Shown: positions 1 to 16,929 of the stretch, piece after piece
Layout: every line of letters begins with the position of its first letter
How positions within the stretch are numbered: position 1 is the first letter of the stretch
The notes under the pieces: model-generated
The model's database searches: none
Told to the model about the DNA's origin: nothing
The model's input: the letters and a program-made list of their open reading frames with translations, nothing else
Assembly (NCBI GenBank): GCA_958296135.2
Contig: CATQHZ020000001.1
Coordinates: 1,024,001 to 1,088,000, forward strand
Origin: an uncultured Poribacteria bacterium
GTDB taxonomy: Bacteria > Poribacteria > WGA-4E > WGA-3G
Length of the DNA: 64,000 nucleotides
Direction: 5' to 3'
Made by a program: the position numbers and the translations under genes

Positions 1-3000
1 GCCGCGGCTATCCACATCCGAGACGATTTGTCCATCGGTAACCTTCGGAAGGACATCGCACGGCTGTCAAGTCTGGATAGCCGAGTCACGGGCTACCCGC
101 AGGCGGCGAGCGGCAGTAAATACATCTTCGACCGGTTTGTAGAAATCGGTTTACAAAACGTAGAGAGCCGCGAATTCCCTGTGACTGTCCCGGTCGATGG
201 CCGTGATAGTGTTATTGAAGTGCTTTCCGCCGAAGGTGCCAAGTTACATACCTTTAAACTGACACCGTTTTGGCCCAACCTCGTGCGCACCTCACTACTG
301 GCGGATGGGATTAAGCATACCGTGCTTCCTGGCGAAACGCTTCAGGAAATCGCGGAGAGTTACCAGGTCGCGGCAGACGTTATCCGCGCGCATGAGAAGA
401 ACAAATTCCTTGCAACGCCTGTCGTTGAGGGCAGCACCGTCTTTATCCCGACGGGTGGGTTGTCCGGCCCGCTCCTTTACGGTGACGATGCCGAGCTCGC
501 CGATTTCAACGGTACGAACATCGGCGGATATTGGTATGGGTTGCAGGCTGGCGATACCCTCACCTCCCTAGCCCGCCGCAACCGCATCACCGAGGCGAGC
601 ATTACTGACGATGTCCTCAACGGCCACCTCCAGAAAGCCTCCGATGGCATTGATAACGATGAAGATGGAACCGTAGACGAATACGGCGAGATCCCGCTTC
701 TATCCGAGATTCGCGGATGGGCCTCCGATGGCATTGACAACGATGCCGATGGCGCTACCGATGAAATCCCCGGCGATGCAACCGACGGTATTGATAACAA
801 TAGAAACGGCGAAATCGACGAGTCCGGCGAATTCGTCGCCGCGAGTGAAGCGCATATCTTCATCCCGAAGGGGGCAATCGTTCTCCTTGAATTTAACTCC
901 AGCACCCGCTATATCAACGCCGCAATGCTCGGCGGCACGGCTGTCATTTTTATTGAGCCGGAGACGACGATTCGCGGCGAAGCCGAGAACAAATTCGGCA
1001 CCGTGCCAGCAAACATCCCCCGCTTTTGGATATCTAAGGCAGACGGCGCAACGTTAAGGGACATGTTAGAGACGCAGACCGGTGGTGACGTGAACGTCCG
1101 CGTCAGAGGGAAGATGAAGTGGGAGCGCTGCATCGGGCAGAACATCCGCGGCTTCTTAGAAGGCGGCGACCCGGGGCTCCGCGACGAACTCGTCGTGCTG
1201 ACAGCTTATTATGATTCGATGTCTGTCGTGCCGGCACTGGCACCCGGGGCAGACCCGACGTGCGGCATCGCCGTGTTGATGGAGCTCGCGCGGCTCTTCA
1301 GTCAACCCGCCTATCGTCCCGGCCGCTCTGTCCTCTTTGTCGCCGTGGATGCGCATTTCCAAGGGCTCGCTGGCATGCGTGCCTTTATGGAAGGCATCGG
1401 ACAGGACATCGTCGGCTCAGCCACAGATTCCCCCGGCACCCCAACGATGCACGGGCTCCGCCGTGGACTCTCTACCGATATTATTGAATTTGAGGAACTC
1501 GGCAGGCGATTGCTGCTCTCTATTGACAGAAGCGTGCTCGTCGATTTGCCGGGCGATTTCTTTTACGGCATCCACTCTATCAAGGATGACCTGGATTCCC
1601 TCGCGACGACGCTTGATGGACTCGCCGAAACCCGCGGCCAAATCGACTCCCTCAACACCAAACAGCGCGATTTCTCTGAACGCCAGAAAAAGCAGGCAGA
1701 CCGGAATAGAAAACGCGAGAAGCAAGGGTTCACCGGTGAGGAGAAAAGTCTGCTGTTGGCCAATCTCGCGCGTTCAAAGAAGGAGGCTTTGCAAACAACA
1801 CACTTCCTCCGGGACATTGTTGGCCGCTTGGCACAAGTCCGCACGGTCGCGTTAAATACCAGCCGTGAGGCGCAACAGGAGCTCATTGAGATGCTTGCAC
1901 TGCCTATTGCACGGCTGGATACCTGGGCGGTGGATAAACTCATCAGCAGCATCGAAAATGCCACGCAATCCCGATACGGCGTGCATCCGAATGACGCTTA
2001 CCTTATCCCCGAACAACGTGGGGACGAATGGTATGTGCCGCTGCCGGCAGACTTGCCACCGGAGTTGGCATCCGAAGTTGAGATGCTGAATGAGACGCTC
2101 GCGAACTGGGAGATGAGCGACAAGCGGAAATTCGCGTTAATGTGGACGCCGGAGAAAATTCTGGACCGGCACCTCGATCTGCACGCGCTCAGTCGCGCGA
2201 AGGCGGCGCGGAAAGTCCTCGGCAATGCATCCGAATCGCGCGAGACAGCGATTCAGCGTGAAAGGCAGTTCCTTGAGGAGGTGCTATCCCAAATCAAGGA
2301 CAGCCTCCCGGTTGAAAACCAGATCAAAGTGAGCATCCGAAAACTCAAAGATGTCGCCATGGCGCAAGCCGCTAGCGGTGTGATTTACAGCGGGAAGTAT
2401 CTGTCCGAGGCCGGGCTTGAACGCCTGAGTACTATCGACGTGCAACTCAGACAGCGGTTAACTGAATCCGACGATGCCAGCGATTCGGCTATCCTCATCG
2501 CCGATTTGCTCAAGGATAAACAGAGCATCTTTGAAATCGCGCTGCGGAACGCGCGCTTGGAACGAACCCGCATCCAAAACTTGCTGGCAACACACGCAAC
2601 TTTGGACCGGGTGTATCTTGACGAGGAGCGCCTCATTTTGAAAAACTACCTCTCCGCCGATGAGTTGGAGCAGGTGGTTCAAATGCGTTCTATCGTTGCC
2701 GCGCACATGACCGAGGCGGAACTTTTGGCTGTTGTCAAACGGCGCGCCGCGTCAGATATCATCGCGCTCAATAACCTGATGGAGCGGCTGCCGACTTTGG
2801 CCCGCGACCTGGATGCGGAGGCGAAGGTGCTGCTGCGGGATAATCTGTTGACGCTCCGCAACGCGCGATTCCGCAACATTCAGAGCCGCATTGAAAAGAT
2901 GTCGCGGATTGACGCGGACGAATATAACCGGAAACTCTCACAGATTGATTCAGCTATTGCGCTGCAAGACCTCTTCAACCGCTACTATACCTCCCTCTAC

Positions 3001-6000
3001 GTCAGCATCGATCTGTCGTCGCAGTCCAATCAGTTTGGGGTATTCAATAAAGGCTGGTTCTATGATCAGCAGCCGGAGTTTGTGCTGCGCCGCGAATTTG
3101 CCAGTATTGGCAATAAACTTGCCTCTTATGCGGAAGATGCCGATTTCGGCGTGCGTGTTCGCAAGCTGTGGCAGTGGACGGATGACCAGATCCGGCAGGC
3201 AGTCATGGCGCGTCAGTGGGGTGTTGCAAGCGGTATCTCCGATAAATCCGCGCTGGAGGGCAAGACGCTGGAAACCTTGCTCAGTTCCCACTACGGCAAA
3301 TTGACAGGGCTCAGCGGCGTAAGCCGCCTGATGAAAATGCAGTTTGAGCAGTGGCGGAATCGGGGTGAACCCTCCGAGGATATGCTGAAGGATATGGAGT
3401 ACGTCCGGAAGGAAGTCGAACGGTTTATCCGAAACGATGTCCGCTCGGCGAAGAAGGACCGGAAGAACAACATTCGCACTCGTGAGCAGCTGGATGCGAT
3501 GCTGCGGCTCCGTCACGAAGACCCGGATACTTTCAGCGAGGAGGAGATTGAGGATATTAAGACGCTCATCGGTATCACGGGGCTCGGCGGCGAGTCGAAC
3601 TTCGTCAACGCCATTTCCGCGAGCGGTGGGAAGACGTGGAAAACCTACATTCCCGGCAAAATCGCGTTTGACAGTGAAGTTGCCACTCTTGTTGGCAAAA
3701 CTGGGATTGCGTTTGCTACTATTGAGGATGCGCGTGTCTTAACTGATACGCCGCTTGACACCATCGACAGGGTTGATTTACGCGAGGATGGCAATCTGCA
3801 TCAGCAGGCAAAGACGCTTGCTTCCTTGCTTATCCAGGCCTTGCGCGATGAGGAGATGCCCACGGCGGCGCGCGTCGGCAATTTTTATTGCAACCTCTTC
3901 GGCGATGTGGTTGAGTTTGACGCACGTGAGTCGGCACTGCCGAATAAACCGGTTCCCTACCCGATTTTGACGTTGCGCCGCAAGAACAAGACGATGATGG
4001 GTGTGCGCGGCGATCTGTTCGTCATGGGTGATAACAAGGGCAACTTTGAGATGGCGGGGCTCGCCATGGAAGGCAGGGCCACGCGTAGACTCGGCGGCGT
4101 GCAGGAAGTGGAGGCATACATCCTCGATCCGGATTCTGGCGACATCGTCTACGCGCCCGATTTGGGGAATTATGGCGCGAAGTTGCTCCCTAATAAGATA
4201 CCTATCAATACGCGCAGACGCGGCTGTCGCGTTGTCACCTTCCCGTGTGTGTCGACGACTATCTATGATCTGGTAGATCAGCGGTATCTGCGCACGCTGC
4301 GGGAATTGGAAGTCTACGATGCGCTCACTGACAGCCCACCCGAAAAATTCGGGATGTCTAAACCGTGGCAACAGGAAGGCGTTTCTGCAGCTGAACCCAT
4401 CGCGCTTGTTTACAGCGAACCGGAAACCCGCATCAAGGTGGGAATGGCATACGGACAGATTGGCAAACGGTTGCTTCTCATCAAAGCCACAAAGAGCGGC
4501 ATGAAAAACCCGACGCTTTACACCGGGGAGGGGTTCGTCGTGCGAGAGAACGGGCAAATCCGTCTTACGCCTTACGTTGTTGTGCGTGATATGTGGTGGC
4601 TTGATGAGAACCGTTCCCGTCTCTATAAGCGATTCGGTATCTCCAGTGACAGACTGGATAAACTGCACCAGTTTGCCAACGAATACCTTGCGAGGGCGGA
4701 GACTGAGTTGCTTCAAAACGATTATCAGCAGGCCCTCAAACTTGCGCGCGCCGCTTGGGGCTATGAATCGCGTGCCTACCCTGATGTCAAGCAGACAGGG
4801 AACGATGTCGTCAACGGCGTAATGTTTTATCTTGCCTTGCTGATGCCGTTCGCCTATTTTATGGAACGGCTCATCTTCGGTTTTCCGAGTATTCATAAGC
4901 AGATTCTGGGTGCGTTCGGCATCTTCCTGCTCGTCTTCTTCTTCCTGAGTCAGGTGCATCCCGCCTTCCAAATCACGACGACACCCGTGATTATCTTAAT
5001 TGCGTTTGTCGTGCTTGCGCTCACGGTAATTGTCATCAGCATTATCGTGCGGAAGTTTGAGGAGCAACTGGAGAAGATTCGGCAGGAGGGCAGCAATGTC
5101 TACAAGGCTGATGTCGGCCGGTTGAGTGCTAGCGCGGCGGCGTTTAGCCTCGGCATTTCCAACATGCGGAAACGGAAGGGACGCACTATCCTCACCTGCT
5201 GCACGCTGGTGATCTTGACGTTCACCGTCATCTCGTTTACGTCGGTGCGGACGTTTATGCATCCGAACCGCACGAGTCTCCCGCAAGTCACGCCGCGTTA
5301 CACGGGCTTACTTATCCGGGACCAGTACTGGCGACCTCTTGAGGAGCCGGTGCTTACCTCGGTGCTAAACGACATGCAGAAGACGCAAATCACTGTGAAC
5401 GCGTTGCGGCGGCTGTTGGAACGCAAAAACGAAATCCTGGTCAAACAGGGGCGGCAGCCGATAGATATCGCCGCTTCACTTACCGCTTTGGAACGGGACG
5501 GTTTCATTGAGGGGAGCCGAGACTTCCTTTCCGATACAGAAGCGAACCAGCGGAGTTCCATGTCGATAGCAGCAGAGGAACCTGTCCTCACCGTGCATAA
5601 TGTTGTTGCACCGCGGGCGTGGTATCAGTCGTCTGGCACCGGGGATCAGTCGTTTGTGCAGTTGACGCGCACCCCTAATTCGGCGGATATGTCGCCGCCG
5701 ATGCATCCCCTCACCGGTGAGGCGTTAAAGTTTGCCGCCAACATGCTCGTCGGCATGAATGAAAATGAGCCTGCTGTCAGCGGTATTGACAGATACCTCC
5801 AATACGGGAAGTGGTTTGACCCGGGTGATTCCGCGTCCTGGCCGACAGAGTGGCCTTATGCGATTGTGCTGCCCAAAGGCATGGCGGAGCTGCTCAAAAT
5901 CACTGAGAGCGATATGGGCAAAGCCACCGTCTCAGTTTACGGCGCTGACTTCACCGTTGTCGGTGTGCTTGGCATCGGGTTCAAGGACCTCACCGATAAC

Positions 6001-7233
6001 GATGGCGAGGAGCTCACCCCGGTCGATTATCAGCTCATGCAACAGCAGCGGAGCCGCGGTGCAACTGGCGACGAGACGCTGGAAGGCGAGCTGCAGAAAT
6101 ATCTGCATCTCACACCGGACAGTGTCGCCGTTTTGCCCTATGAGGTAGTCATGAACCAAGGGGGCACTCTCCGAAGTGTCGCTGTGAATATGGAGCCGCA
6201 AGACGATGATCCGAAATTACTCGGTGCGATTGATAAGTTGGACCTGATTATGGCACCGCTGATGAACCGTATCGCTTTGGACTTTTTTGTCGGGCGCGAT
6301 AAGGACACCTATCTCTATAGCAGTATCGGGATGACCAGTTTCAGCGGGATGGGCAATTTGTTCGTGCCGATTCTCATCGCTGCGCTGATTGTGTTGAACA
6401 CGATGCTTGGTGCTGTTTACGAGCGCGTGCGCGAAATCGGGATTTACAGTTCTGTCGGGCTTGCGCCGGTGCACATCGCGTTCTTGTTCCTTGCGGAGGC
6501 GTGCGTCTACGCGATTGTCGGCGCGGTGCTCGGCTATCTAATGGGACAGGCGATTGCGACTACCTTAGTTAACTTCGGTTGGCTCGCGGGCTTGACGTTG
6601 AACTACTCGTCAATGTCGACTGTGGTAGCTACGATTATCGTGATGGTAGTCGTGTTGCTCAGCACGATGTATCCCGCGGTGAAAGCCTCACGAATGGCGG
6701 TGCCGGATATCGAGCGGAAATGGAAGCTGCCTGAGCCGGAAGGCGACGTGTGGCATTTCAACCTGCCGTTCACCGTGCTGGCTGAAGAGGCACTCGGCTT
6801 GAATGTCTTCATGCGGGACTATTTTGAGGCACACGCAGACGAATCGGCGAGTGATTTTTACACCGACCAGGTGGCATTTAGCGAAGGCGACGAGGCGTCC
6901 TACCAGATCGGCATGATGGTATGGCTAGCGCCTTATGACTTAGGCGTGAGCCAGTCCATCAAGTTCGTCACCTCCCCTGTGGGCGGTGAGGAGGAGGACC
7001 TCTACAAAATCACGTTGGAGGTTCATCGTGAAAGCGGCGAGATTGCGTCGTGGAAGCGTGTGAACCGGCGGTTCCTCAACTTGTTGCGGAAGCAGCTCCT
7101 GATTTGGCGGACGTTCAGCGTGGATATCCGTGCCGAGTTCCACGAACGCGGCAGGGTAGAAAGTGCTGTCCCGGCTGAAGAAGAAGCAGGCGCAGCACCG
7201 CGGTTAGAACCGGCGGTAACGTCGGCGGGTTAG
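1..7233 (+). CDS. Giant membrane protein, 5'-truncated: LysM x2, DGIDNDxDG Ca-binding repeats, degenerate M28/PA peptidase-like fold, two FtsX-like permease modules
   Basis: Frame is open from base 1. LysM motifs HTVLPGETLQEIA and YGLQAGDTLTSLA; three DGIDN(D/N) repeats; M28-like TAYYDS, GADPTCG and DAHFQGLAG; FtsX signatures NMRKRKGRTILT and ERVREIGIYSSVGL with multiple TM helices. Confidence 0.85.
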   Translation, partial: AAAIHIRDDLSIGNLRKDIARLSSLDSRVTGYPQAASGSKYIFDRFVEIGLQNVESREFPVTVPVDGRDSVIEVLSAEGAKLHTFKLTPFWPNLVRTSLLADGIKHTVLPGETLQEIAESYQVAADVIRAHEKNKFLATPVVEGSTVFIPTGGLSGPLLYGDDAELADFNGTNIGGYWYGLQAGDTLTSLARRNRITEASITDDVLNGHLQKASDGIDNDEDGTVDEYGEIPLLSEIRGWASDGIDNDADGATDEIPGDATDGIDNNRNGEIDESGEFVAASEAHIFIPKGAIVLLEFNSSTRYINAAMLGGTAVIFIEPETTIRGEAENKFGTVPANIPRFWISKADGATLRDMLETQTGGDVNVRVRGKMKWERCIGQNIRGFLEGGDPGLRDELVVLTAYYDSMSVVPALAPGADPTCGIAVLMELARLFSQPAYRPGRSVLFVAVDAHFQGLAGMRAFMEGIGQDIVGSATDSPGTPTMHGLRRGLSTDIIEFEELGRRLLLSIDRSVLVDLPGDFFYGIHSIKDDLDSLATTLDGLAETRGQIDSLNTKQRDFSERQKKQADRNRKREKQGFTGEEKSLLLANLARSKKEALQTTHFLRDIVGRLAQVRTVALNTSREAQQELIEMLALPIARLDTWAVDKLISSIENATQSRYGVHPNDAYLIPEQRGDEWYVPLPADLPPELASEVEMLNETLANWEMSDKRKFALMWTPEKILDRHLDLHALSRAKAARKVLGNASESRETAIQRERQFLEEVLSQIKDSLPVENQIKVSIRKLKDVAMAQAASGVIYSGKYLSEAGLERLSTIDVQLRQRLTESDDASDSAILIADLLKDKQSIFEIALRNARLERTRIQNLLATHATLDRVYLDEERLILKNYLSADELEQVVQMRSIVAAHMTEAELLAVVKRRAASDIIALNNLMERLPTLARDLDAEAKVLLRDNLLTLRNARFRNIQSRIEKMSRIDADEYNRKLSQIDSAIALQDLFNRYYTSLYVSIDLSSQSNQFGVFNKGWFYDQQPEFVLRREFASIGNKLASYAEDADFGVRVRKLWQWTDDQIRQAVMARQWGVASGISDKSALEGKTLETLLSSHYGKLTGLSGVSRLMKMQFEQWRNRGEPSEDMLKDMEYVRKEVERFIRNDVRSAKKDRKNNIRTREQLDAMLRLRHEDPDTFSEEEIEDIKTLIGITGLGGESNFVNAISASGGKTWKTYIPGKIAFDSEVATLVGKTGIAFATIEDARVLTDTPLDTIDRVDLREDGNLHQQAKTLASLLIQALRDEEMPTAARVGNFYCNLFGDVVEFDARESALPNKPVPYPILTLRRKNKTMMGVRGDLFVMGDNKGNFEMAGLAMEGRATRRLGGVQEVEAYILDPDSGDIVYAPDLGNYGAKLLPNKIPINTRRRGCRVVTFPCVSTTIYDLVDQRYLRTLRELEVYDALTDSPPEKFGMSKPWQQEGVSAAEPIALVYSEPETRIKVGMAYGQIGKRLLLIKATKSGMKNPTLYTGEGFVVRENGQIRLTPYVVVRDMWWLDENRSRLYKRFGISSDRLDKLHQFANEYLARAETELLQNDYQQALKLARAAWGYESRAYPDVKQTGNDVVNGVMFYLALLMPFAYFMERLIFGFPSIHKQILGAFGIFLLVFFFLSQVHPAFQITTTPVIILIAFVVLALTVIVISIIVRKFEEQLEKIRQEGSNVYKADVGRLSASAAAFSLGISNMRKRKGRTILTCCTLVILTFTVISFTSVRTFMHPNRTSLPQVTPRYTGLLIRDQYWRPLEEPVLTSVLNDMQKTQITVNALRRLLERKNEILVKQGRQPIDIAASLTALERDGFIEGSRDFLSDTEANQRSSMSIAAEEPVLTVHNVVAPRAWYQSSGTGDQSFVQLTRTPNSADMSPPMHPLTGEALKFAANMLVGMNENEPAVSGIDRYLQYGKWFDPGDSASWPTEWPYAIVLPKGMAELLKITESDMGKATVSVYGADFTVVGVLGIGFKDLTDNDGEELTPVDYQLMQQQRSRGATGDETLEGELQKYLHLTPDSVAVLPYEVVMNQGGTLRSVAVNMEPQDDDPKLLGAIDKLDLIMAPLMNRIALDFFVGRDKDTYLYSSIGMTSFSGMGNLFVPILIAALIVLNTMLGAVYERVREIGIYSSVGLAPVHIAFLFLAEACVYAIVGAVLGYLMGQAIATTLVNFGWLAGLTLNYSSMSTVVATIIVMVVVLLSTMYPAVKASRMAVPDIERKWKLPEPEGDVWHFNLPFTVLAEEALGLNVFMRDYFEAHADESASDFYTDQVAFSEGDEASYQIGMMVWLAPYDLGVSQSIKFVTSPVGGEEEDLYKITLEVHRESGEIASWKRVNRRFLNLLRKQLLIWRTFSVDIRAEFHERGRVESAVPAEEEAGAAPRLEPAVTSAG

Positions 7234-7292
7234 TCAGCGGCACGCCGCGTCAAAGTCGCCTGAAGATTAAGAAAAGAAACGGAATAATTTCT

Positions 7293-7392
7293 GTAGGGGG
7301 GTTCTCCTGGTTCCGATGCGGCGTTGTAGGAGGGTTCTCCTTGTCCCGATATGGTTTTCGTCGAGACGCGGGAGGGCTCTCCTACCGGGGGA
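7293..7392. repeat. REP-like cluster, GTAGGAGAG..TCCCG.GTCTCGAC family
   Basis: gtagggggg, gtaggagggttctcc and gtcgagacgcgggagggctctcctac copies; the same motif recurs at 47378-47655 and 51264-51395. Confidence 0.75.
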
Positions 7393-7418
7393 TTCGGTAG
7401 TTTACGCGAGGAAATAGC

Positions 7419-7646
7419 ATGGAAAAAATAGCGAGTCTTATCATTATTGGCGGCACAGTTTTATGGCTGTTCAGCATTTTCGCGCTCGAGGGCCGGTGGC
7501 AGTGGCAGATGCTCTCGGCACTCGTGCTGACAGTTGGCATTTTCTGTGCCCACTTTTGGGAAGAGTTTCAAGATGCCGGTGACGGTGGACAAGATGCCGG
7601 TGACGGTGGACAAGATGCCGGAGATGGGGGTACGCCGGGGGAGTAG
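7419..7646 (+). CDS. Small 2-TM membrane protein with acidic QDAGDGG repeat tail
   Basis: GAGG RBS before ATG; two hydrophobic stretches; lies within the operon. Confidence 0.7.
   Translation: MEKIASLIIIGGTVLWLFSIFALEGRWQWQMLSALVLTVGIFCAHFWEEFQDAGDGGQDAGDGGQDAGDGGTPGE
7569..7624 (+). repeat. 21-bp tandem repeat (caagatgccggtgacggtgga, ~2.7 copies)
   Basis: Directly visible; encodes QDAGDGG. Confidence 0.9.
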
Positions 7647-7724
7647 GTGCGATTCCTCGGTTCGCAAAGCGGTAGATAATTGGGTCCAACGCCTTGCGGC
7701 ATAAAACATAGGAGAAACATCAAT

Positions 7725-9713
7725 TTGGCGAGAGAAAGAGTATCACAAGCAGATGAGTGGCAAGCTTGGGCGAAACGGTACGACATCGAAGGCGGTATCC
7801 GCACTTTTGAGTCCGGTCTCACCGTCAAAGTATTCATCGGTGCGCTCTTTATAGGGTTGCTGATGATGCCCGGCTCCATCTATCTCAGTTATGTATCCGG
7901 CCAATCTGGTGCGGAAGCGGCCCCGTGGGTAGCAGTGATTCTGTTCACTGAACTCGCGCGGCGTTCGTTTACGACAGCCCGGCGCCAGGAGCTCTATATG
8001 CTCCTCGGACTCACCGGTGCGGCTGTCGGGAGTGGGATGCAATACCGCAATTTTATCTGGTATGCCTACTTCGTGAACACGCCGCAGGCGGCTTCTTATG
8101 AAATCGCCGATAAAATTCCGGATTGGATTGTGCCTGCCGGCGATTCTGTCGGCGTGCTGACGCGGAGCCTCTTACATCCCGACTGGTTTCTGCCGATTGC
8201 AGTGTACCTCGCCGGTAAGCTGCTTGGCACGCTGCGGTTTGTGAGTGGGCAGTATATCTTGTTCCGGCTCACTGCAGACTTGGAGCGGCTTCCGTATCCG
8301 ATGGCCCCGATTAGCGCGCAGGGCGCGACGGCACTTGCAGAGACTACGGGTAAGGAGGAGACCTGGCGGTGGCGCGTCTTTTCCATCGGCTCTATGGCGG
8401 GGCTTATCTGGGGGTTCCTCTATATCGGTGTCCCCGCGCTCTCCGGTGTGATGATGAGCCAACCCATCGAGATTCTGAAGATTCCGTGGATAGATTTCAC
8501 GCAGAGTATTGAAGGGTTCGCGCCGACAGGCGTGTTCGCGCTCCGCACGGACTTCGGCCAGATGCTGATCGGGTTCGTCATGCCGTTTCCGATTATGATG
8601 GCGGAGTTTGTCGCGGCGATGGCATCGCAATTTATCATAAAACCGCAAATCCTTTACCCGGCTGAAATCTTACATCAATGGCAGGAGGGCCTTGATGTGC
8701 GGGCAGCCAATCTGTTCAACAGCCTTGACTTCGAGATGAGTTTCGGGATGGGCAAATCGTTCAGTTTTGCGGTAGTCGGCATGGCAGCCTCTATTCCGAT
8801 GCTGTTTAAGATGCGGCAGCGGCAGAAACGCGCCGGGGAACGCGGTTCATTCGCGACACCGCCGAATCGCGGCGATTTCCCGATATGGTTGATGGGCGCG
8901 ATGTGGCTCATCGGCATGGCCGGGTTTGTCTGGCTCATCCACTGGATGGTGCCGAACTTCCCACTCAGTTTCTTGCTCGGGTATGCGTTTTTGTATACGC
9001 CGATCAACTCGTATATCACGGCACGGACGTTCGGGGTGCTGGGCCGCGACCTTTTTGAAATCCCGTATCTGCACGAGATTACCTTTATTTTGAGCCGGTA
9101 TGAAGAGGTGGATATCTGGTTTGCGCCGCTCCCAGACGAAGACTACGGCAGGGGCACGCAGGGATGGCGGGTGCTGGAACTGACTGGCACGACGTTCACG
9201 TCAAACCTCGCCGGCACGTTGCTGATTATGCCGATTCTGCTGGTCAGCGGGATTGTCGTGCTGCACTTTATCTGGCAAATCGCGCCGATTCCGAGCGCGC
9301 AATACCCGTTCGTCCAGATGATGTGGCCCATCAACGCCACGAACGAGTGTCTGTGGAAGACATCGCTCAGGGATGGGAATAGCGAGATGCTTCAGGCCAT
9401 CCGCGGCGATTATGTCTCCGCCGGCTTTACCTCGATGCTTGCACTTTACGGGTTGCTCTGGGTGTTCAAACTCCCATCGATGTGGTTTTACGGCATCGCC
9501 GGCGGCATCTTTGGTGACCCGGGTAGCATGGTGGCACGCTTACTCGGCGCAGTCATCGGCCGGTTCTACATGATCAAACGGTTCGGCATGCGCCGGTGGT
9601 ATATGTTCAATCCGGTGCTGGCGGCAGGGTTCGCCTGCGGTGTCGGTTTAATCGGCATGGGCACGGTGGCGATTGCGCTTGTCTCCAAAGCCGTGATTGT
9701 GAAACCGTTTTAA
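7725..9713 (+). CDS. OPT-like (oligopeptide-transporter-related) multi-pass membrane protein
   Basis: Many TM helices; ERLPYPMAPI motif; GGAGA RBS at 7711 before TTG 7725 (track start 7680). Confidence 0.75.
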   Translation: MARERVSQADEWQAWAKRYDIEGGIRTFESGLTVKVFIGALFIGLLMMPGSIYLSYVSGQSGAEAAPWVAVILFTELARRSFTTARRQELYMLLGLTGAAVGSGMQYRNFIWYAYFVNTPQAASYEIADKIPDWIVPAGDSVGVLTRSLLHPDWFLPIAVYLAGKLLGTLRFVSGQYILFRLTADLERLPYPMAPISAQGATALAETTGKEETWRWRVFSIGSMAGLIWGFLYIGVPALSGVMMSQPIEILKIPWIDFTQSIEGFAPTGVFALRTDFGQMLIGFVMPFPIMMAEFVAAMASQFIIKPQILYPAEILHQWQEGLDVRAANLFNSLDFEMSFGMGKSFSFAVVGMAASIPMLFKMRQRQKRAGERGSFATPPNRGDFPIWLMGAMWLIGMAGFVWLIHWMVPNFPLSFLLGYAFLYTPINSYITARTFGVLGRDLFEIPYLHEITFILSRYEEVDIWFAPLPDEDYGRGTQGWRVLELTGTTFTSNLAGTLLIMPILLVSGIVVLHFIWQIAPIPSAQYPFVQMMWPINATNECLWKTSLRDGNSEMLQAIRGDYVSAGFTSMLALYGLLWVFKLPSMWFYGIAGGIFGDPGSMVARLLGAVIGRFYMIKRFGMRRWYMFNPVLAAGFACGVGLIGMGTVAIALVSKAVIVKPF

Positions 9714-9741
9714 TAGGGCGGATATTGAAATCCGCCCTTAC
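9714..9741. repeat. REP-like palindrome, GTAAGGGCGGA family
   Basis: agggcggatattgaaatccgcccttaca; related copies near 28043, 42860, 43421 and 59996. Confidence 0.75.
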
Positions 9742-9770
9742 AGGCCGTCGGGGCATCAGACTTGCCCCGG

Positions 9771-9884
9771 CTCTTAACCCGTAGCGCGAGGGAAAACCTG
9801 TCCCTCGCGTCTCTTGGAAATCACGCCCTCTTAACCCGTAGCGCGAGGGAAAACCTGTCCCTCGCGTCTCTCGGAAATCACGCC
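9771..9884. repeat. 57-bp tandem duplication containing a GTAGCGCGAGGG..CCCTCGC palindrome
   Basis: ctcttaacccgtagcgcgagggaaaacctgtccctcgcgtctc(t/c)ggaaatcacgcc present twice. Confidence 0.9.
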
Positions 9885-9912
9885 CCGGAATGGGTTGCAG
9901 GAATAACGCAAC

Positions 9913-10908
9913 ATGGACGACTGGACTGTTTTTGGCTGGGCAGGCACACAGTTGGAAATCCCGAAGGAGTGGGAGCTGAGCGGGCTCAGTGGCGATGAGA
10001 AGACCGGCTATCTTCGGCTTGACGATGCTGATATGCCGCGTCTAGAACTTAAATGGGCGCATACGCGGAAGAAAAAACCGGACCTGCATGCAACGCTTGA
10101 CGAATACTTTAAGTTAATCCGCAAGAGTTACAAAAAAGGTCCGGACCTTTCCTTCCGCCGGAATGTCACTCTTATCAAGGAACCCGCATTCTTTAAGGGG
10201 CGCAACGTCATCGGGTTTAGTTGGAAAGGGGGTGTCCGCGCGAATGGGCTCATTTTGCACGCAGGCAAACGGATTACCATCGTCCAAGTCATGGGCCGGT
10301 TGAAAGAGAATTGGCGGCCCACGGTGCTCCGCGTTTTCCGCTCGATTTCGACACCGGGCGATGCGCCGAATACGTTGTGGAGTGCATACGGCCTCGCGCT
10401 TGCTGTGCCAAGCGAATACAAATTGGAGCGGCAGAAACTGCTGAGCGGCTATCTGCTGTTTGCCTTTGTTGCGAAACGGTCGCGCCTGCGGCACTTGATT
10501 CCTGCGGCAAAAGGCGTGCCTATCCTCGCTGAGCGACAGCGGCTCAGCGTTGAACGTTATGGCCCTGCGGAAGTCATGCTCGGTGATTTCAAAGCGGCGT
10601 TGAACCCGTTAGAGGCGTGGTTTCGTGCAAAATACGCCAAGGCAATCCGCGGCTACGGATTTGAGGTAACCTCTTACACCGATGCCCACGATGAACATCT
10701 CACGCTCATCGGGCAGCAGACGCGGCTCTACGATGGTGTGCCGTTCTCGCCGGTGCTAGCCCTTGACAAATTGTCGAAACGGGCAACGCTCGCGTTTCAC
10801 TTGTGGCGATGCCATTATTCTAATCGCATCTACGTCATCCAATCTGTCGGCGGTGTGGATGCTGAAGGCACGGTGCGGCAGGTGGCAGCGAGTATTCAGT
10901 GCCATTAA
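9913..10908 (+). CDS. Hypothetical protein
   Basis: 331-aa ORF with AGGA RBS, co-oriented within the operon; no recognised motif. Confidence 0.75.
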   Translation: MDDWTVFGWAGTQLEIPKEWELSGLSGDEKTGYLRLDDADMPRLELKWAHTRKKKPDLHATLDEYFKLIRKSYKKGPDLSFRRNVTLIKEPAFFKGRNVIGFSWKGGVRANGLILHAGKRITIVQVMGRLKENWRPTVLRVFRSISTPGDAPNTLWSAYGLALAVPSEYKLERQKLLSGYLLFAFVAKRSRLRHLIPAAKGVPILAERQRLSVERYGPAEVMLGDFKAALNPLEAWFRAKYAKAIRGYGFEVTSYTDAHDEHLTLIGQQTRLYDGVPFSPVLALDKLSKRATLAFHLWRCHYSNRIYVIQSVGGVDAEGTVRQVAASIQCH

Positions 10909-10994
10909 CCTTATTAACCTTATTTTCCGGCCGGTAGGCGCGGTTTCACGTTCCACCAAGTGGGGCTCGGTGCGGCACCTATGGATACGAAAGA

Positions 10995-11462
10995 ATGCTA
11001 AACAAACTCCTATACACCCTCAAACTGAAGAAACGGCCTGACATGGATCGTGGGCGCATTATGAAGTCGTTCCCCGTTCGGAACCAGCTCATCACGTGGG
11101 AAGTTGATGACAAGGGTGAGGCATCCCTCGTTGTTCCACAGAAGGGCAAGTTGTGGGTGCGGCTTGCCAGCAAGTTTTTCATGCTCCCGACTAAGCGCGT
11201 CATCGTGCTGGATGCGATGGGCACCTTTGTCTGGCAGATGTGCGATGGCAAACATACGATTGCGCAGATTATCAAGGGTATCCAAAAACAGCACCAGTTA
11301 ACCCGAAAAGAAGCGGAGACCTCGCTCTTTACGTTCATGCAGCAGCTCGGCAAGCGGAACTTCATCGGCTTCGCGATTCCGACAGACAACAGGCCGAACG
11401 CACCGGCAAAGCATGAACCGGAGCCTCAGCGGCGTTTTGGATTTCTACCCAAGCGCCGGTAA
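10995..11462 (+). CDS. PqqD-family / RiPP recognition element-like protein
   Basis: LDAMGTFVWQMCDGKHTIAQII...EAETSLFTFMQQLGKRNFI matches the PqqD winged-helix pattern. Confidence 0.8.
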   Translation: MLNKLLYTLKLKKRPDMDRGRIMKSFPVRNQLITWEVDDKGEASLVVPQKGKLWVRLASKFFMLPTKRVIVLDAMGTFVWQMCDGKHTIAQIIKGIQKQHQLTRKEAETSLFTFMQQLGKRNFIGFAIPTDNRPNAPAKHEPEPQRRFGFLPKRR

Positions 11463-11566
11463 GTTATTGCCGTTTTCGGGTTTTCCCTCGTGCTACGGTT
11501 CATGGGTAGTTTTCGTAGGGTGGGGCCTGTGCCCCGCCATGTTTCAATCAAGGAAGGATAGAAATA

Positions 11567-12376
11567 ATGAACGTGCAAGAAATCGGCGATGTGCAACCAA
11601 TCCCGGTCGAAATGCCGGAACGGCTTCAGCGCATCCTCCCAAAAGAGAATACCGTGCGCGTCCGGAACCTCATCAAACGGTATGAAATGGGCTCGACTAC
11701 CGTGGACGCGCTGCGCGGTGTCAATTTCCAAATCCAACGCGGCGAATACATCTCGATTATGGGCCCTTCGGGCTCTGGGAAGTCGACGCTTTTCAACATG
11801 ATTGGCGGCTTGGATAAACCCACCGAGGGCAGAGTCTACATTGACGAAGTGGACATCGCGCAGCTCGATGCGTATGAGCTCGCGTGGCTCCGCTGCCGAA
11901 AAATCGGCTATATCTTTCAATCGTTCAACCTTATCCCTGTCATGACGGCCCTGGAGAACGTCTCACTTCCGATGATTTTCGCTGGCACGAGTGCCGATGA
12001 GAGTCGGGAGCAAGGCGTGTCCCTGCTCTCCCTCGTTGGATTGGGAGACCGGGTGCAGCACAAGCCGTTAGAACTTTCCGGCGGACAGCAGCAGCGTGTC
12101 GCTATTGCGCGTTCGCTCGCGAATGACCCGGCCATTGTCCTCGCTGACGAACCGACGGGGAACTTGGATACCAAAACCGGGTTGGAGATTATCGCGTTGC
12201 TGCGTCGTCTCAACGCGGAGAACGGTGTGACGATTATCACTGCAACGCATGACCACAAGATGTTAGATGTCTCCGACCGGATTTTCCACATGGCAGATGG
12301 CAAGGTGGATAAGATAGAGTCTCGCGACGAGATCGACCTGCACGTCGGCAGATTAGATGGTGAAGAAGTCGGATAA
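11567..12376 (+). CDS. ABC ATP-binding protein, LolD/MacB type
   Basis: Walker A GPSGSGKST, LSGGQQQRVAIAR, LADEPTGNLD. Confidence 0.95.
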   Translation: MNVQEIGDVQPIPVEMPERLQRILPKENTVRVRNLIKRYEMGSTTVDALRGVNFQIQRGEYISIMGPSGSGKSTLFNMIGGLDKPTEGRVYIDEVDIAQLDAYELAWLRCRKIGYIFQSFNLIPVMTALENVSLPMIFAGTSADESREQGVSLLSLVGLGDRVQHKPLELSGGQQQRVAIARSLANDPAIVLADEPTGNLDTKTGLEIIALLRRLNAENGVTIITATHDHKMLDVSDRIFHMADGKVDKIESRDEIDLHVGRLDGEEVG

Positions 12377-12452
12377 TTCTATGGAATTGTAAGGGCGTAT
12401 TTCGTAGCCATCGTCAGAAAAACCCGTTTAGTGCCTATTCGCCCAACAAATC

Positions 12453-13565
12453 ATGAACATTTACGAAAAACTCGGCATTCGCACGATTATCAACGGCAAT
12501 GCGACGTTGACGCGCCTCGGCGGCTCCATCATGCCCCCGGAGGTTGTCGCGGCGATGGTAGCGGCATCGAAGCACTTCGTTGACATCGTCGCGCTCCAAA
12601 GACGGGTGGGAGAAGAGCTCGCGCGATTGACGCACAACGAGGCGGCGTATGTCTCGTGCGGTGCTGCGGCGGCGTTGACGCTCAGCACGGCGGCGTGCAT
12701 CACCGGACTTGATGCCGCCAAGCGCGAAAAATGTCCCAACCTAGCTGATTCGATGAAAAGCGAAGTCATTGTCCATAGATACGGGCGCGTCGGCTACGAT
12801 TTCGCTGTGCGGCAGGTAGGGGTGACGTTCGTGGAAATCGGCGATGAGAACGGCACCTCTCCGGACGAGTTAGAGGCGGCGATTACCGACAAAACCGCCG
12901 CGTTCTTCTATTTTGCGAATCCGAGCCGCGAGCATCTCTGGGTGCCTTATGAAGCTGGCATTGCCATTGCCAAGCGGCACGGCGTGCCTGTCATCGTTGA
13001 TGCCGCCGCGCAGCTGCCTCCGAGAGAGAACCTGTGGCGGTTTACACAGATGGGTGCTGATGTGGTGATGTTTAGCGGCGGGAAAGGGTTGTGCGGCCCG
13101 CAGAGTAGCGGTTTAATTGTGGGCACCCAACAGATGATTGACGCAATTGCCTTCAACGGCCCGCCGCATCCCTTCATCGGCAGAGGGATGAAGGTGGGCA
13201 AGGAAGAGATAGTCGGCTTGCTCGCCGCTGTGAAGTGGTATCTGAAGCACGCCGAGACGTTCCAGCAAACCTACGAGGAGCAGGTTGTCTACTTCGCGCA
13301 AGAGTTCGCGAACGTCTGTGGGGTTGAGGTGCATCGCAGTTTTCCCTCTGAAGCGGGACAGCCGATGCCGCGCACAGAAATCTGTTTTGATGAAAATCGG
13401 TTGGGCATCACACGCGATGAGATTCTTCGACAACTCGCGGCGGGTGAGCCTTCTATTGACATCGCGGGTGCAGGCACAAACGGCGTGCTGATTAACGGAC
13501 AGACGCTGATGCCGGGTGAAGTGGCAATTATCGCGCGCAGATTAAAGGACATTTTGAAAACATGA
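12453..13565 (+). CDS. SelA-like / DgaE-family PLP-dependent enzyme
   Basis: IINGNATLTRLGGS, VIVDAAAQ, FSGGKGLCGPQSSG (PLP lysine), IGRGMKVGKEEI. Confidence 0.85.
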   Translation: MNIYEKLGIRTIINGNATLTRLGGSIMPPEVVAAMVAASKHFVDIVALQRRVGEELARLTHNEAAYVSCGAAAALTLSTAACITGLDAAKREKCPNLADSMKSEVIVHRYGRVGYDFAVRQVGVTFVEIGDENGTSPDELEAAITDKTAAFFYFANPSREHLWVPYEAGIAIAKRHGVPVIVDAAAQLPPRENLWRFTQMGADVVMFSGGKGLCGPQSSGLIVGTQQMIDAIAFNGPPHPFIGRGMKVGKEEIVGLLAAVKWYLKHAETFQQTYEEQVVYFAQEFANVCGVEVHRSFPSEAGQPMPRTEICFDENRLGITRDEILRQLAAGEPSIDIAGAGTNGVLINGQTLMPGEVAIIARRLKDILKT

Positions 13566-14272
13566 GACTAAATAACGGCATTCAACTCACATGGCTGGGG
13601 CATTCTACCTTTAAAATTGAAGCTGATGGACAAACTCTCCTCATCGATCCGTGGGTAATGAGCAACCCGGTATGTCCCGATGGGCTCAAAACCTTTGACA
13701 AAATCGATTTAATGCTGATAACGCACGGCCACGCGGACCACGTTAGCGACGCGGTTGTTCTGGCGAAAGAGCATGCTCCGACGGTTGTCTCTATCGTTGA
13801 GATTGCCGGATGGCTTGGCAGGAAAGGGGTTGAAAACACCATCGGCATGAATAAGGGCGGCACCGTCACCGTTGGCGGTGTGAGAGCGACGATGGTAACA
13901 GCAAATCATAGCAGTAGTTTCACGGAAGAAGATGGCACGACAGTCTATCTCGGTGAACCCGCGGGTTACGTGCTGGAGTTCGCGAACGGCTATAAAATTT
14001 ACCACGCCGGGGATACGAACGTCTTTGGCGATATGCGTATCATCGGTGAAATTTACCAACCAGAGCTTGCGCTGTTGCCCATCGGAGAGCACTTTACGAT
14101 GGGGCCGCGGGAAGCGGCTTACGCGACGCGATTGCTCAACGTCCCTGCAGTCGTGCCGATTCACTACGGAACGTTCCCGCTGTTGACTGGCACGCCGGCA
14201 GAACTGCGCAAATTGACAGCATCTCAAGATGTAGAAATCGTTGCGTTGGAGGTTGGGGAGACATTGGATTAA
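13562..14272 (+). CDS. MBL-fold metal-dependent hydrolase (UPF0173-like)
   Basis: WLGHS, THGHADH, YHAGDT, PIHYGTF; ATGA overlap with the upstream gene. Confidence 0.9.
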   Translation: MRLNNGIQLTWLGHSTFKIEADGQTLLIDPWVMSNPVCPDGLKTFDKIDLMLITHGHADHVSDAVVLAKEHAPTVVSIVEIAGWLGRKGVENTIGMNKGGTVTVGGVRATMVTANHSSSFTEEDGTTVYLGEPAGYVLEFANGYKIYHAGDTNVFGDMRIIGEIYQPELALLPIGEHFTMGPREAAYATRLLNVPAVVPIHYGTFPLLTGTPAELRKLTASQDVEIVALEVGETLD

Positions 14273-14276
14273 CGGG

Positions 14277-15050
14277 TTATTGGAGCAGCCGCCGGACCTG
14301 CGCGCCAATATCGGGACTACGCATCAACGCCTCGCCTACCAACATTGCATGGACACCTGCTGCGCGTAGACTGGCAACGTTCTCGCGTGTATGGATGCCG
14401 CTTTCACTGACGATGCTCTTGTCTTCAGGGATTTCCTTGCGTAAACGGAACGTTGTCTCAATGTCGGTGTGGAATGTGCGCAAATCTCGGTTGTTAATGC
14501 CGATGATGTGTGCGTCTGCGTCTAAAGCCATTGCTAATTCTTCCTGCGTATGCACCTCGACGAGGCATGCCAGGGACAACGCTTCCGCGATGTCTATGAA
14601 TTCGCGCAACTGCCTCGGTGTCAACGCCGCCACGATGAGTAGGATGGCATCCGCGCCTGCTGCGCGCGCCTGATAGATGTGATACGCATCCAGCGTGAAA
14701 TCTTTCCGGAGTAGGGGCACGTCAACGGCTTGACGAATGGCGGCCAGATATCCGAGTTCTCCGGCGAAAAAGTGGCTGTCGGTTAGCACGGAGATGGCGG
14801 ATGCGCCGTTTTCAGCGTAGGTTTGGGCAATCTCCACCGGGTGGAAATCCTTGCGGATGATACCCTTGCTCGGCGATTTTTTCTTCACCTCTGCGATGAG
14901 ATTCACCGCGCTGGGCACCGAAATGGCGGTGCGGAAGTCGCGCGGTGGCGGTATGTCTGCGATGGCTGCCTTTAATGCCGTCAGTGGCACTTGTGCCTGT
15001 TCCGCCTTCAGTTCTTCGCGTTTATGTTGGATAATCGTGTCTAATATCAA
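14277..15050 (-). CDS. trpC: Indole-3-glycerol phosphate synthase
   Basis: IAEVKKKSPSKG, LRKDF, GINNRDL, VSESGI. Confidence 0.95.
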   Translation of the reverse strand: MILDTIIQHKREELKAEQAQVPLTALKAAIADIPPPRDFRTAISVPSAVNLIAEVKKKSPSKGIIRKDFHPVEIAQTYAENGASAISVLTDSHFFAGELGYLAAIRQAVDVPLLRKDFTLDAYHIYQARAAGADAILLIVAALTPRQLREFIDIAEALSLACLVEVHTQEELAMALDADAHIIGINNRDLRTFHTDIETTFRLRKEIPEDKSIVSESGIHTRENVASLRAAGVHAMLVGEALMRSPDIGAQVRRLLQ

Positions 15051-16602: not shown

Positions 16603-16929
16603 TTAGCTAGTTTCGGTTCGATTCTGTGTTAGCGTCTGGATGACTGCATCCAGGTCTGGTGCCTGTATCGCGGTGTCAAGCACCTGCTTGAGATGTTGCA
16701 CATCGGTGACTGCCTCAAACACGGGCTTTAGTGCCTGTGCTTCTTGCAGTTGGAACCGCACTTCCAAGACACGCATGAGCGTATCAATGGTAGTTTCACG
16801 GGCACCCTGGATTATACCGATTTCAATCCCCTCTTGGCGTCCTTGTTGGAGTCCTTGTTGGAGTCCGTTTTGGCGTGCGGCTTCCTCGGTTTCCCCGCTG
16901 AGCAATTGATAAACGGGTGATTTTTTCAT
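16603..16929 (-). CDS. Predicted in-frame internal small protein (RpnS-like, 108 aa)
   Basis: GGAGGAACTC-ATG inside the Rpn gene; the same start was retained in the tandem copy. Confidence 0.6.
   Translation of the reverse strand: MKKSPVYQLLSGETEEAARQNGLQQGLQQGRQEGIEIGIIQGARETTIDTLMRVLEVRFQLQEAQALKPVFEAVTDVQHLKQVLDTAIQAPDLDAVIQTLTQNRTETS

Follow-up and report, generated by a model that had tools for sequence, protein, structure and literature searches.

What do the six co-oriented genes at the start of G000:C1:1024001-1088000 encode together? This 64,000-nt stretch from an uncultured Poribacteria bacterium (the window; gene and protein positions are numbered within it) opens with a run of six open reading frames (ORFs) on the plus strand, all present as an earlier reading, made from the sequence alone, had given them. 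They encode a giant membrane protein, a microprotein, an OPT-like protein, a 331-aa protein, a PqqD/RRE-family protein and an ATPase of the ATP-binding cassette (ABC) type. We propose that the operon carries the genes for most of a single multi-subunit membrane machine, in which a type VII ABC mechanotransducer acts together with an OPT-like partner and adaptors, and we regard this proposal as about evenly balanced between right and wrong. It is built on gene content, on domain and fold assignments and on co-conservation. The sequence-only reading had already placed a type VII (MacB/Lol/FtsX-type) ABC motor at the base of the system, and the family matches of the permease unit and of the ATPase bear this out. 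It had also taken the six genes as one machine. Gene order is indeed kept across phyla, but the six genes are incomplete, with a small FtsX protein and a second ATPase encoded elsewhere in the genome.

The evidence for a single system comes from the distribution of its genes. One genome per species was scanned for the OPT-like family, which gave at least 494 confirmed stretches; 78 loci (40 from the Poribacteria block and 38 from other phyla) were kept with 10-kb flanks and searched by tblastn with the proteins of the window. In Poribacteria, all 39 loci with enough flank have the giant gene upstream and co-oriented, the genes for the 331-aa and PqqD proteins both lie downstream in 37/37, and the ATPase gene (at least 60% identity) lies downstream in 38/40. 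In the other phyla, 25 of 34 loci have the giant gene within 1 kb on the upstream side of the OPT-like gene, and the ATPase occurs, at the same identity, in 12 of 38, six times upstream and six times downstream. Beyond Poribacteria, the cassette occurs in Armatimonadota, Abditibacteriota, WS1, Gemmatimonadota, Brocadiia and others, and gene order is kept across at least five phylum-level lineages. The microprotein, which had been counted as a two-helix part of the system, does have two hydrophobic segments, but as a part of the system it does not hold: its gene was detected in 35 of the 40 Poribacteria-block loci and in 0 of the 38 others, and it is restricted to Poribacteria and not core. The OPT-like family was found in 119 of 121 Poribacteria genomes, which is 113 of the 115 high-quality ones, and in all 19 genera. 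A single copy is the rule, the exception being one genus (g9, e.g. G096:C1:4229986-4234065) with two copies in tandem in 13 of 14 genomes; the genome of the window has one OPT-like gene and one giant gene. Because the family is present in 119 of 121 genomes, its distribution points to a core or housekeeping function, which it fits better than an accessory cluster for RiPPs (peptides made by the ribosome and modified after translation).

The subunits absent from the operon were recognized in other lineages. In an Armatimonadota locus, a small FtsX protein (identified by Pfam; 228 aa, with four helices and some 50 residues in its outer loop) is encoded between the PqqD and ATPase genes, and wherever the ATPase occurs in the non-Poribacteria loci (12 of 12), small FtsX adjoins it. 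Its orthologue in the genome of the window is 46% identical over the full length (E 3e-53), the next match being 35% identical in the FtsX domain only. A second ATPase gene follows it directly, and its product is 62% identical to the operon ATPase and 63% to the Armatimonadota ATPase, while the operon ATPase and the Armatimonadota ATPase are 73% identical. Small FtsX is single-copy in 41/41 Poribacteria genomes searched, and its remote position is common to all of them; it is followed by the second ATPase in 10/10 Poribacteria loci, this genome's included. In five genomes, one each from Armatimonadota, Abditibacteriota, WS1, Gemmatimonadota and Brocadiia, the tandem PsbP-type protein (the 331-aa protein of the window), this subtype of PqqD and small FtsX were each present in five of five (a single PsbP-tandem gene, a single strong match to the PqqD subtype and a single small FtsX per genome), even where they are not beside the giant gene, and the Brocadiia genome has a second operon in the order PsbP-tandem, PqqD, small FtsX, ATPase. 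Because these three parts co-occur in all five distant genomes, the conserved core is six proteins: the giant protein, the OPT-like protein, the PsbP-tandem protein, the RRE protein, small FtsX and the ATPase. To this core, Poribacteria have added a duplicated ATPase and the microprotein. Judged from orthology, small FtsX and the second ATPase are the likely missing subunits of the system.

The giant protein contains, in this order, a signal peptide, a large ectodomain, a three-helix bundle, one MacB/FtsX unit and a cytoplasmic C-terminal domain. Its gene begins with an ATG 114 nt upstream of the window, at L002:13887, and the N-terminus, MKRKIPLLLFCLSLCFVAAPFRHVFAEA, is signal-peptide-like. 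A crude hydropathy scan, in full-length numbering, placed some 1600 residues outside the membrane after the signal sequence, and then helices at 1641-1720 (three), 1767 (one) and 2159-2261 (three). The loop after the first three helices ends in a LGISNMRKRKGRT motif (between residues 1720 and 1767), an outer domain of about 370 residues separates the helix at 1767 from those at 2159-2261, and a tail of about 180 residues ends the protein. Pfam found FtsX as a single domain (47.2 bits, cut-off 25.5; 2.8e-12). An alignment of the last 849 aa (A4, 28 sequences) was used as a profile against the PDB, and it matched MacB (5lil) at E 1.2e-17 in two collinear stretches, one covering transmembrane helix 1 (TM1) and the periplasmic domain and the other TM2-4; it also matched chains of YtrF, LolF, LolC, LolE and FtsX. 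MacB_PCD scored 16.7 bits in the window protein, below the Pfam cut-off, and was above it in one homologue, L079 (29.9 bits, cut-off 27). The three-helix bundle had no PDB match in the profile search, and as a second FtsX unit it was rejected, with no similarity to the FtsX domain by hhalign (E 0.29). Thus the earlier description of the protein as a double-FtsX permease has to be given up: Pfam finds one unit, the MacB profile match occurs once, and the upstream helices are unlike FtsX.

The same C-terminal 849 aa matched two PADLOC models, PDLC01991 'CARF_m8--CARF_LolE_TM' (E 3.9e-49; 5.3e-61 for the Armatimonadota homologue) and PDLC01990 'CARF_m8--CARF_Beta-galactosidase_LolE_TM' (E 7.6e-25). 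On PDLC01991, the helix bundle and TM1 cover positions 31-184, the periplasmic domain and the FtsX helices cover 269-505, and the cytoplasmic domain covers 543-690 (E 6.9e-6 alone). Positions 690-810 are unmatched, as the giant protein ends there, and we presume that the CARF part of the model lies in them. These catalogued, untested families share the whole membrane module with the giant protein, and PDLC01990 also has a large enzyme-like ectodomain; PDLC01991 differs in its last 120 profile positions, which are absent from the giant protein. The cytoplasmic domain (179 aa) was modelled by AlphaFold2 (AF2) from alignment A5 (28 sequences), with pLDDT 87.2 and pTM 0.80. In the model, the order of elements is beta-alpha-beta4-alpha2, which is not Rossmann-like. 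Its best structural neighbours are Bet v1/START-like, Aha1-C and KA1-like proteins at Z 8-9.6, matches that may reflect only a common arrangement, and no CARF chain was among the 50 best. A protein atlas lookup of this domain was uninformative (best score 0.88). The ectodomain core, a helical insert and the C-terminal domain gave no match to Pfam or to PDB sequences.

The head of the ectodomain resembles an M28 peptidase whose site has been changed. The FtsX, M28 and LysM domains that had been called in the giant protein are all upheld by Pfam, the Peptidase_M28 match (9.2e-9) covering profile positions 1-78 of 193 only; the PA domain scored 19.6 bits, below the Pfam cut-off. Among proteins of solved structure, the nearest in sequence are Aeromonas aminopeptidase, Nicalin and glutamate carboxypeptidase III (GCPIII), with E from 1e-4 (the E151H mutant of the aminopeptidase) to 4e-3. 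The head was also aligned, at E 1e-7, to a true PA-M28-TFR_dimer peptidase of the same genome (L116:1280-3226). Where the true peptidase has NHHDAW the giant protein has AYYDSM (His to Tyr), where it has AADPGSG the giant protein has GADPTCG (Asp kept), and DAEEFG is changed to DAHFQG (Glu-Glu to His-Phe). In an alignment of 28 homologues from all lineages, the position of aminopeptidase His97 is Tyr, Phe or Met in 28/28 and never His, the M28 Asp position is Asp, Glu or Gln, and the position of the catalytic Glu, Glu151, is His in 28/28. The Aeromonas residue numbers used here are consistent with the numbering of the PDB alignment. Active M28 enzymes, as we understand them, bind two zinc ions through His, Asp, Glu, Asp and His and use a catalytic Glu. 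In the alignable first half of the domain the giant protein departs from this ligand set; the second half, which would hold the last two ligands, is not alignable. In sequence, the site is remodelled rather than simply dead: the M28 chemistry is lost and the site is conserved. Because it has lost the M28 residues and yet stays conserved, we read the pocket as a probable ligand-binding site, most likely for a peptide.

Other parts of the ectodomain vary between lineages. The charged insertion of about 520 aa has no Pfam match, and non-Poribacteria homologues occupy it mostly at 0.03-0.15, with one 40-residue bin at 0.42; residues 121-320, which bear the LysM segments, are occupied by other phyla at 0.00-0.45. 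Homologues compared from other lineages are 1501-1895 residues long.

The OPT-like protein probably starts at TTG 7725, which lies behind AGGAGA and gives 662 residues, as in the closest homologues. Among 8000 candidates scored, 310 relatives had E up to 1e-3. Precomputed PF03169 annotation was present on 6 of 120 listed relatives, and a few were named 'peptide transporter' in their source. Of 14 aligned family members, three matched PF03169 directly with E up to 0.1 (the best at 7.2e-8), and an Armatimonadota relative (L052) covers positions 133-620 of 623 with 24.3 bits (cut-off 25.8). With the nine rows of the alignment that are not from Poribacteria the window protein shares 40-43% identity, and the family has its own invariant motifs, T[SA]DxE[RK]LP[FY]P and A[QSA]GATALAE. 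Some relatives match PF03169 and the window protein itself does not, so its homology to OPT runs by transitivity; the earlier OPT-like call has to be qualified in this sense. We accept the protein as a distant relative of the OPT superfamily, judged from sequence, and not as a member at the Pfam threshold.

Two small cytoplasmic proteins are encoded downstream. The 331-aa protein, like the microprotein, has no Pfam match, also at E 10; it has 469 representative relatives and no signal peptide, and a protein atlas lookup gave unnamed clusters only. It had been listed as hypothetical, and the gene is real; it is no longer featureless, since the AF2 model (pLDDT 91.7, pTM 0.88) has two tandem PsbP/Mog1-type domains. 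Residues 2-148 superimpose on cyanobacterial PsbP 2xb3 with Z 15.1 and a root-mean-square deviation of 2.6 over 138 residues, and residues 151-331 match Mog1 1jhs with Z 10.9 (Foldseek gave PsbP at 1.2e-5). Other structural neighbours are DcrB, the Eag-type chaperones SciW and EagT6, the immunity protein TplEi, LpqN and TiME. Thus, the protein is predicted to be a tandem PsbP/Mog1 fold, with an antiparallel sheet flanked by helices. Proteins of this fold family are binding proteins, not enzymes. In alignment A2, the family has near-invariant Cys and His at positions C117, C300, C330 and H331, a pattern suggestive of a metal site; in the window protein residue 117 is Ala, and the CxxC that most relatives have in the N-domain is missing. 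Longer homologues have no extra Pfam domain in eight of nine cases. The exception, P0276, is a 222-aa metagenomic protein in which an SRP54_N (FtsY-like) segment is joined to the first PsbP-like domain; this single case is possibly an artefact of assembly or gene calling, and, should it be genuine, it would hint at a connection with membrane targeting.

The second small protein is of the PqqD family, as had been called, with PF05402 matched at 43.3 bits (cut-off 23.4) over positions 4-67 of 67 (4.8e-11). It stays below every NCBIfam equivalog cut-off (33 against 46 for PqqD TIGR03859); the nearest models are ScmD, PqqD and the lasso-peptide B1 protein. A conserved N-terminal extension carries a PxRN motif (alignment A3). 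In the window and the related loci examined, no conserved gene for a radical-SAM enzyme, protease, cyclase, precursor or modifying enzyme was found in its context. Genes upstream for a PhyH dioxygenase and Zn-ADH (12 of 42 loci) and downstream for SelA-like and MBL proteins occur in close relatives only. Because their recurrence is limited in this way, these flanking genes are outside the cassette, and it was correctly stated that no RiPP enzyme is conserved beside the PqqD/RRE-like protein. In the ATPase, Walker A, the signature, Walker B with the catalytic Glu and the H-loop are readable. The call of a LolD/MacB-type ATPase is confirmed by ABC_tran (4.5e-35) and by the top NCBIfam matches, which are LolD (3e-70), DevA, YbbA, DarD, MacB and FtsE.

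Table 1. Coordinates of the operon, of domains within the giant protein and of related or neighbouring genes (window numbering unless a contig or locus is named).
Feature	Position	Strand	Length, basis or remark
Giant membrane protein gene	1..7233, off window 5' end	+	2448 aa; first 38 codons at L002:13887-14000
Lineage-specific insertions: two LysM-like segments and acidic DGxDND repeats	about nt 260-850	+	LysM 1.2e-5
PA/M28-like core, metal site AYYDS, GADP, DAHFQG	865..1392	+	Pfam M28, PDB matches, alignments
Charged insertion, ~520 aa, Poribacteria-specific, no family match	1444..3006	+	Occupancy in alignment
Extra three-helix bundle (cluster A)	4807..5046	+	51-58% identical across phyla
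MacB-type unit (TM1, periplasmic core domain, FtsX TM2-4)	5185..6669	+	Pfam FtsX, profile against PDB
Cytoplasmic C-terminal domain, alpha+beta	6694..7230	+	AF2 model, PDLC01991 match
Microprotein gene	7419..7646	+	75 aa, two hydrophobic segments, three QDAGDGG repeats
OPT-like gene	7725..9713 (longest ORF from 7680)	+	662 aa from TTG 7725, 677 aa from 7680
Tandem PsbP/Mog1-fold gene	9913..10908	+	331 aa, predicted fold
PqqD/RRE-family gene	10995..11462	+	155 aa, Pfam PqqD
MacB/LolD-type ABC ATPase gene	11567..12376	+	269 aa, Pfam ABC_tran
Small FtsX	G000:C1:4692755-4693411		3.7 Mb from operon; orthologue search
Small FtsX and second MacB-type ATPase	G000:C1:4692755-4694165 (L098:8755-10165)		Between AIR-carboxylase-like gene and FRG/TPR gene
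Type ISP enzyme	20991-24191	-
Type ISP enzyme	L111:7447-10521	-
Type ISP enzyme	L118:1312-4569	+

How would these parts act together? From the assignments above we infer physical association, coupling, ligand and direction as follows. The giant protein, with its one FtsX unit, and the small four-helix FtsX would form a LolCE-like heterodimer. It would be powered by two MacB/LolD-type ATPases, the operon's own and the paralogue encoded beside small FtsX. ATP binding and hydrolysis in the cytoplasm would be transmitted through the FtsX helices and cause movement of the giant ectodomain, in which the non-catalytic pocket of the M28/PA-like head would bind a ligand, most likely a peptide. The OPT-superfamily protein would be the membrane partner that gives a path across the membrane. 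On the cytoplasmic side, the PsbP/Mog1 tandem and the RRE-like protein could serve as non-enzymatic adaptors or chaperones, which hold a peptide or the tail of a partner. As for direction, we lean tentatively, by analogy, to capture and uptake of oligo- or polypeptides, because characterized OPT proteins import and the head looks receptor-like; export is the main alternative and we consider it rather unlikely. A more ambitious form of the uptake model, itself improbable in our estimate, would be a new class of hybrid, with an OPT-fold permease in obligate coupling to a type VII ABC mechanotransducer made up of the giant FtsX protein, its small FtsX partner and the two ATPases. The head would capture polypeptides, ATP-driven movement would feed them to the OPT-fold channel, and RRE and the PsbP/Mog1 tandem would form an inside ratchet that binds the incoming chain.

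Several observations weigh against a single machine that works in uptake. No giant gene was found within 10 kb in 9 of the 34 non-Poribacteria loci (mostly Latescibacterota and Gemmatimonadota), and because of these loci the OPT-like protein may be encodable apart, or may work alone. In the non-Poribacteria loci, tblastn found the 331-aa gene downstream in 10/29, and together with the PqqD gene in 7/29. The OPT-like protein of the window gave no Pfam match even at E 10, and the profile of its family gave no match to PDB sequences at E 1. The pair of small FtsX and second ATPase could be an independent ABC system, as its link to the operon consists of orthology and of gene order elsewhere. In other settings, RRE domains are known to serve in the maturation of peptides, and this speaks for export; an RRE together with an Eag-like fold on the cytoplasmic side fits export as well.

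The rival that takes up the last of these points, and the one favoured by the sequence-only reading, is an export or sorting machine, where the RRE and the PsbP/Mog1-fold chaperone hold a ribosomal peptide or protein, the membrane module passes it, and the peptidase-like head releases or processes it outside. Membership in the RRE/PqqD family speaks for it, as does the presence of Eag-type chaperones (SciW, EagT6) and immunity proteins among the structural neighbours of the PsbP/Mog1 fold, and MacB-type pumps export peptides and LolCDE extracts lipoproteins. However, the cassette has no conserved gene for a precursor or modifying enzyme, its flanks differ between lineages, its near-universal single-copy presence in the phylum is unlike that of secondary-metabolite clusters, and characterized proteins of the OPT family are importers. 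We therefore rate such a machine as improbable, though worth keeping in view. A quite improbable rival is an envelope-remodelling regulator of the FtsEX-EnvC kind, with the ATP-driven FtsX unit switching the pseudo-peptidase head, which would in turn activate or position cell-wall hydrolases, and the OPT-like protein taking up the released peptides. The LysM-like segments of the ectodomain would suit this role, and a degenerate peptidase on an FtsX module recalls EnvC, which carries a degenerate LytM domain; however, the LysM segments are inside a Poribacteria-specific insertion and no hydrolase gene is conserved in the cassette. Less probable again is that the genes are neighbours without a shared function, so that an ABC permease with its ATPase, a secondary transporter independent of them and a pair of unrelated small proteins simply lie side by side: separate encoding of the parts does occur, but gene order across at least five phylum-level lineages and the joint occurrence of all parts in five of five distant genomes argue otherwise. 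A ligand-sensing or defence-related membrane effector related to CARF_m8 LolE_TM, a signalling device and not a transporter, is very improbable, for although the two PADLOC models cover the helix bundle, the MacB unit and the cytoplasmic domain, the presumed CARF positions are unmatched, the predicted cytoplasmic domain is neither Rossmann-like nor close to CARF structures, the other five operon proteins have no system-specific PADLOC model (the ATPase has generic P-loop matches only), and single-copy presence in 119 of 121 genomes is unlike defence genes.

The proposed machine can be compared with known type VII ABC systems, whose roles include efflux, lipoprotein release and control of cell-wall hydrolases. 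With LolCDE it shares permease units of the FtsX type, in which TM1 and TM2 are separated by a periplasmic domain, a probable pairing of two different permease subunits (here the giant protein and small FtsX), LolD as the top match of the ATPase, and LolC, LolE and LolF chains among the matches of the permease profile. The equivalog cut-offs were not reached, with 31.9 against 473 for LolC (NF008076), 17.2 against 362 for lolCE (TIGR02212) and 236.2 against 307.75 for LolD (TIGR02211). In contrast to LolCDE, only one permease here has a periplasmic domain, and LolCDE lacks the ectodomain of about 1600 aa, the three-helix bundle, the cytoplasmic domain, the OPT-like partner and the two cytoplasmic adaptors. 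MacB of MacAB-TolC is the best solved match of the membrane module and has the same mechanotransmission architecture, but the ATPase of the cassette is a separate polypeptide, no gene for a MacA-type adaptor or TolC is in the cassette, and MacB is a homodimer whereas a heteromer is likely here. FtsEX with EnvC or PcsB also couples an FtsX module to a degenerate hydrolase-like ectodomain, a likeness in logic only; here, the degenerate domain is M28-like and covalently fused, FtsX is a weak match (8idb, E 0.032), and there is no divisome context.

The single components also differ from their known relatives. The OPT-like protein shares with the OPT/Yellow-Stripe-like family (PF03169) a distant homology through its relatives and a large, polytopic architecture, but the cassette family is paired with an FtsX protein and has its own invariant motifs; we know of no report of OPT proteins paired with FtsX proteins. 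The RRE protein is like PqqD/RRE of RiPP systems in scoring above the PF05402 cut-off, and unlike them in staying below the equivalog cut-offs, in having no conserved RiPP enzyme or precursor beside it, and in its N-terminal extension. The head is similar to M28 pseudo-peptidases of the Nicalin and transferrin-receptor type, which also have a PA and M28-like head without catalytic residues, and Nicalin is its second-best PDB match (E 1.9e-4). It differs in that 78 M28 profile positions are recognizable, in other substitutions with an invariant new His, in being bacterial and in its fusion to an ABC permease. To our knowledge, no type VII ABC system has a partner with a secondary-transporter fold, an RRE or PsbP-fold cytoplasmic adaptors. 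It had been stated that no function is described for this architecture, and in the parts of the literature that our search covered there was no account of the architecture, of DUF6785 or of a pairing of FtsX with OPT or RRE; a passage search of PMC12710340 gave a single mention of 'transporter', which is unrelated. None of the three findings that the sequence-only reading had named as fatal to it was obtained: the genes are co-conserved, the 155-aa protein is of the PqqD family, and no characterized transporter matches the cluster.

The cassette probably serves a basic envelope or nutrient function in mostly uncultured lineages. If it acts as proposed, RRE domains would gain a role outside the biosynthesis of peptide natural products, and the catalogued 'CARF_m8 LolE_TM' membrane module would be tied to a wider family. 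If the hybrid transporter were real, ATP-powered uptake of long peptides would be core to Poribacteria and to several little-studied phyla. The Abditibacteriota strain IAD-21 (locus L056) may make the function of the cassette testable.

Some further features of the operon and its surroundings were noted. In the spacer that separates the genes for the giant protein and the microprotein (7234-7418), a motif of some 25 nt with the form GTAGGnGGGTTCTCCTnGTnCCGAT can be seen by eye about three times. A scan of 7000-14500 was not informative, with one promoter-like site (4.3 expected) and 13 terminator-like sites (8.2 expected). The genome (G000:C1, 5.2 Mb) encodes 24 full-length DUF6785+DUF6784 membrane paralogues of about 630-730 aa, one of which lies at 18964-20976 (minus strand), 6.6 kb downstream of the operon; the chance of such closeness is about 0.06-0.08. 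The OPT-like family aligned with these paralogues collinearly over 529 columns by hhalign at E 0.43. BLASTP gave E 0.083 over one motif only, and there was no DUF6785 or DUF6784 Pfam match. Of the 78 loci, only two (L072, L076) have a DUF6785 homologue immediately upstream of the giant gene, and the neighbours of 20 of the 24 paralogues (80 ORFs) had no common theme and gave no clue to a substrate. At three places in the genome (Table 1), a DUF6785 paralogue adjoins a Type ISP restriction-modification enzyme (Type_ISP_C + N6_Mtase + Eco57I), and this pair of genes is possibly a block that was duplicated. In the window, the DUF6785 gene has immediately downstream of it genes for two proteins of about 335 aa without a family match (16603-17610 and 17776-18795, both on the minus strand). 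On the other side of the operon, 8-12 kb upstream, L002:2214-6320 (plus strand) encodes a 1368-aa Lamin Tail Domain protein (two stretches, 5.9e-21), which is unrelated to the cassette.

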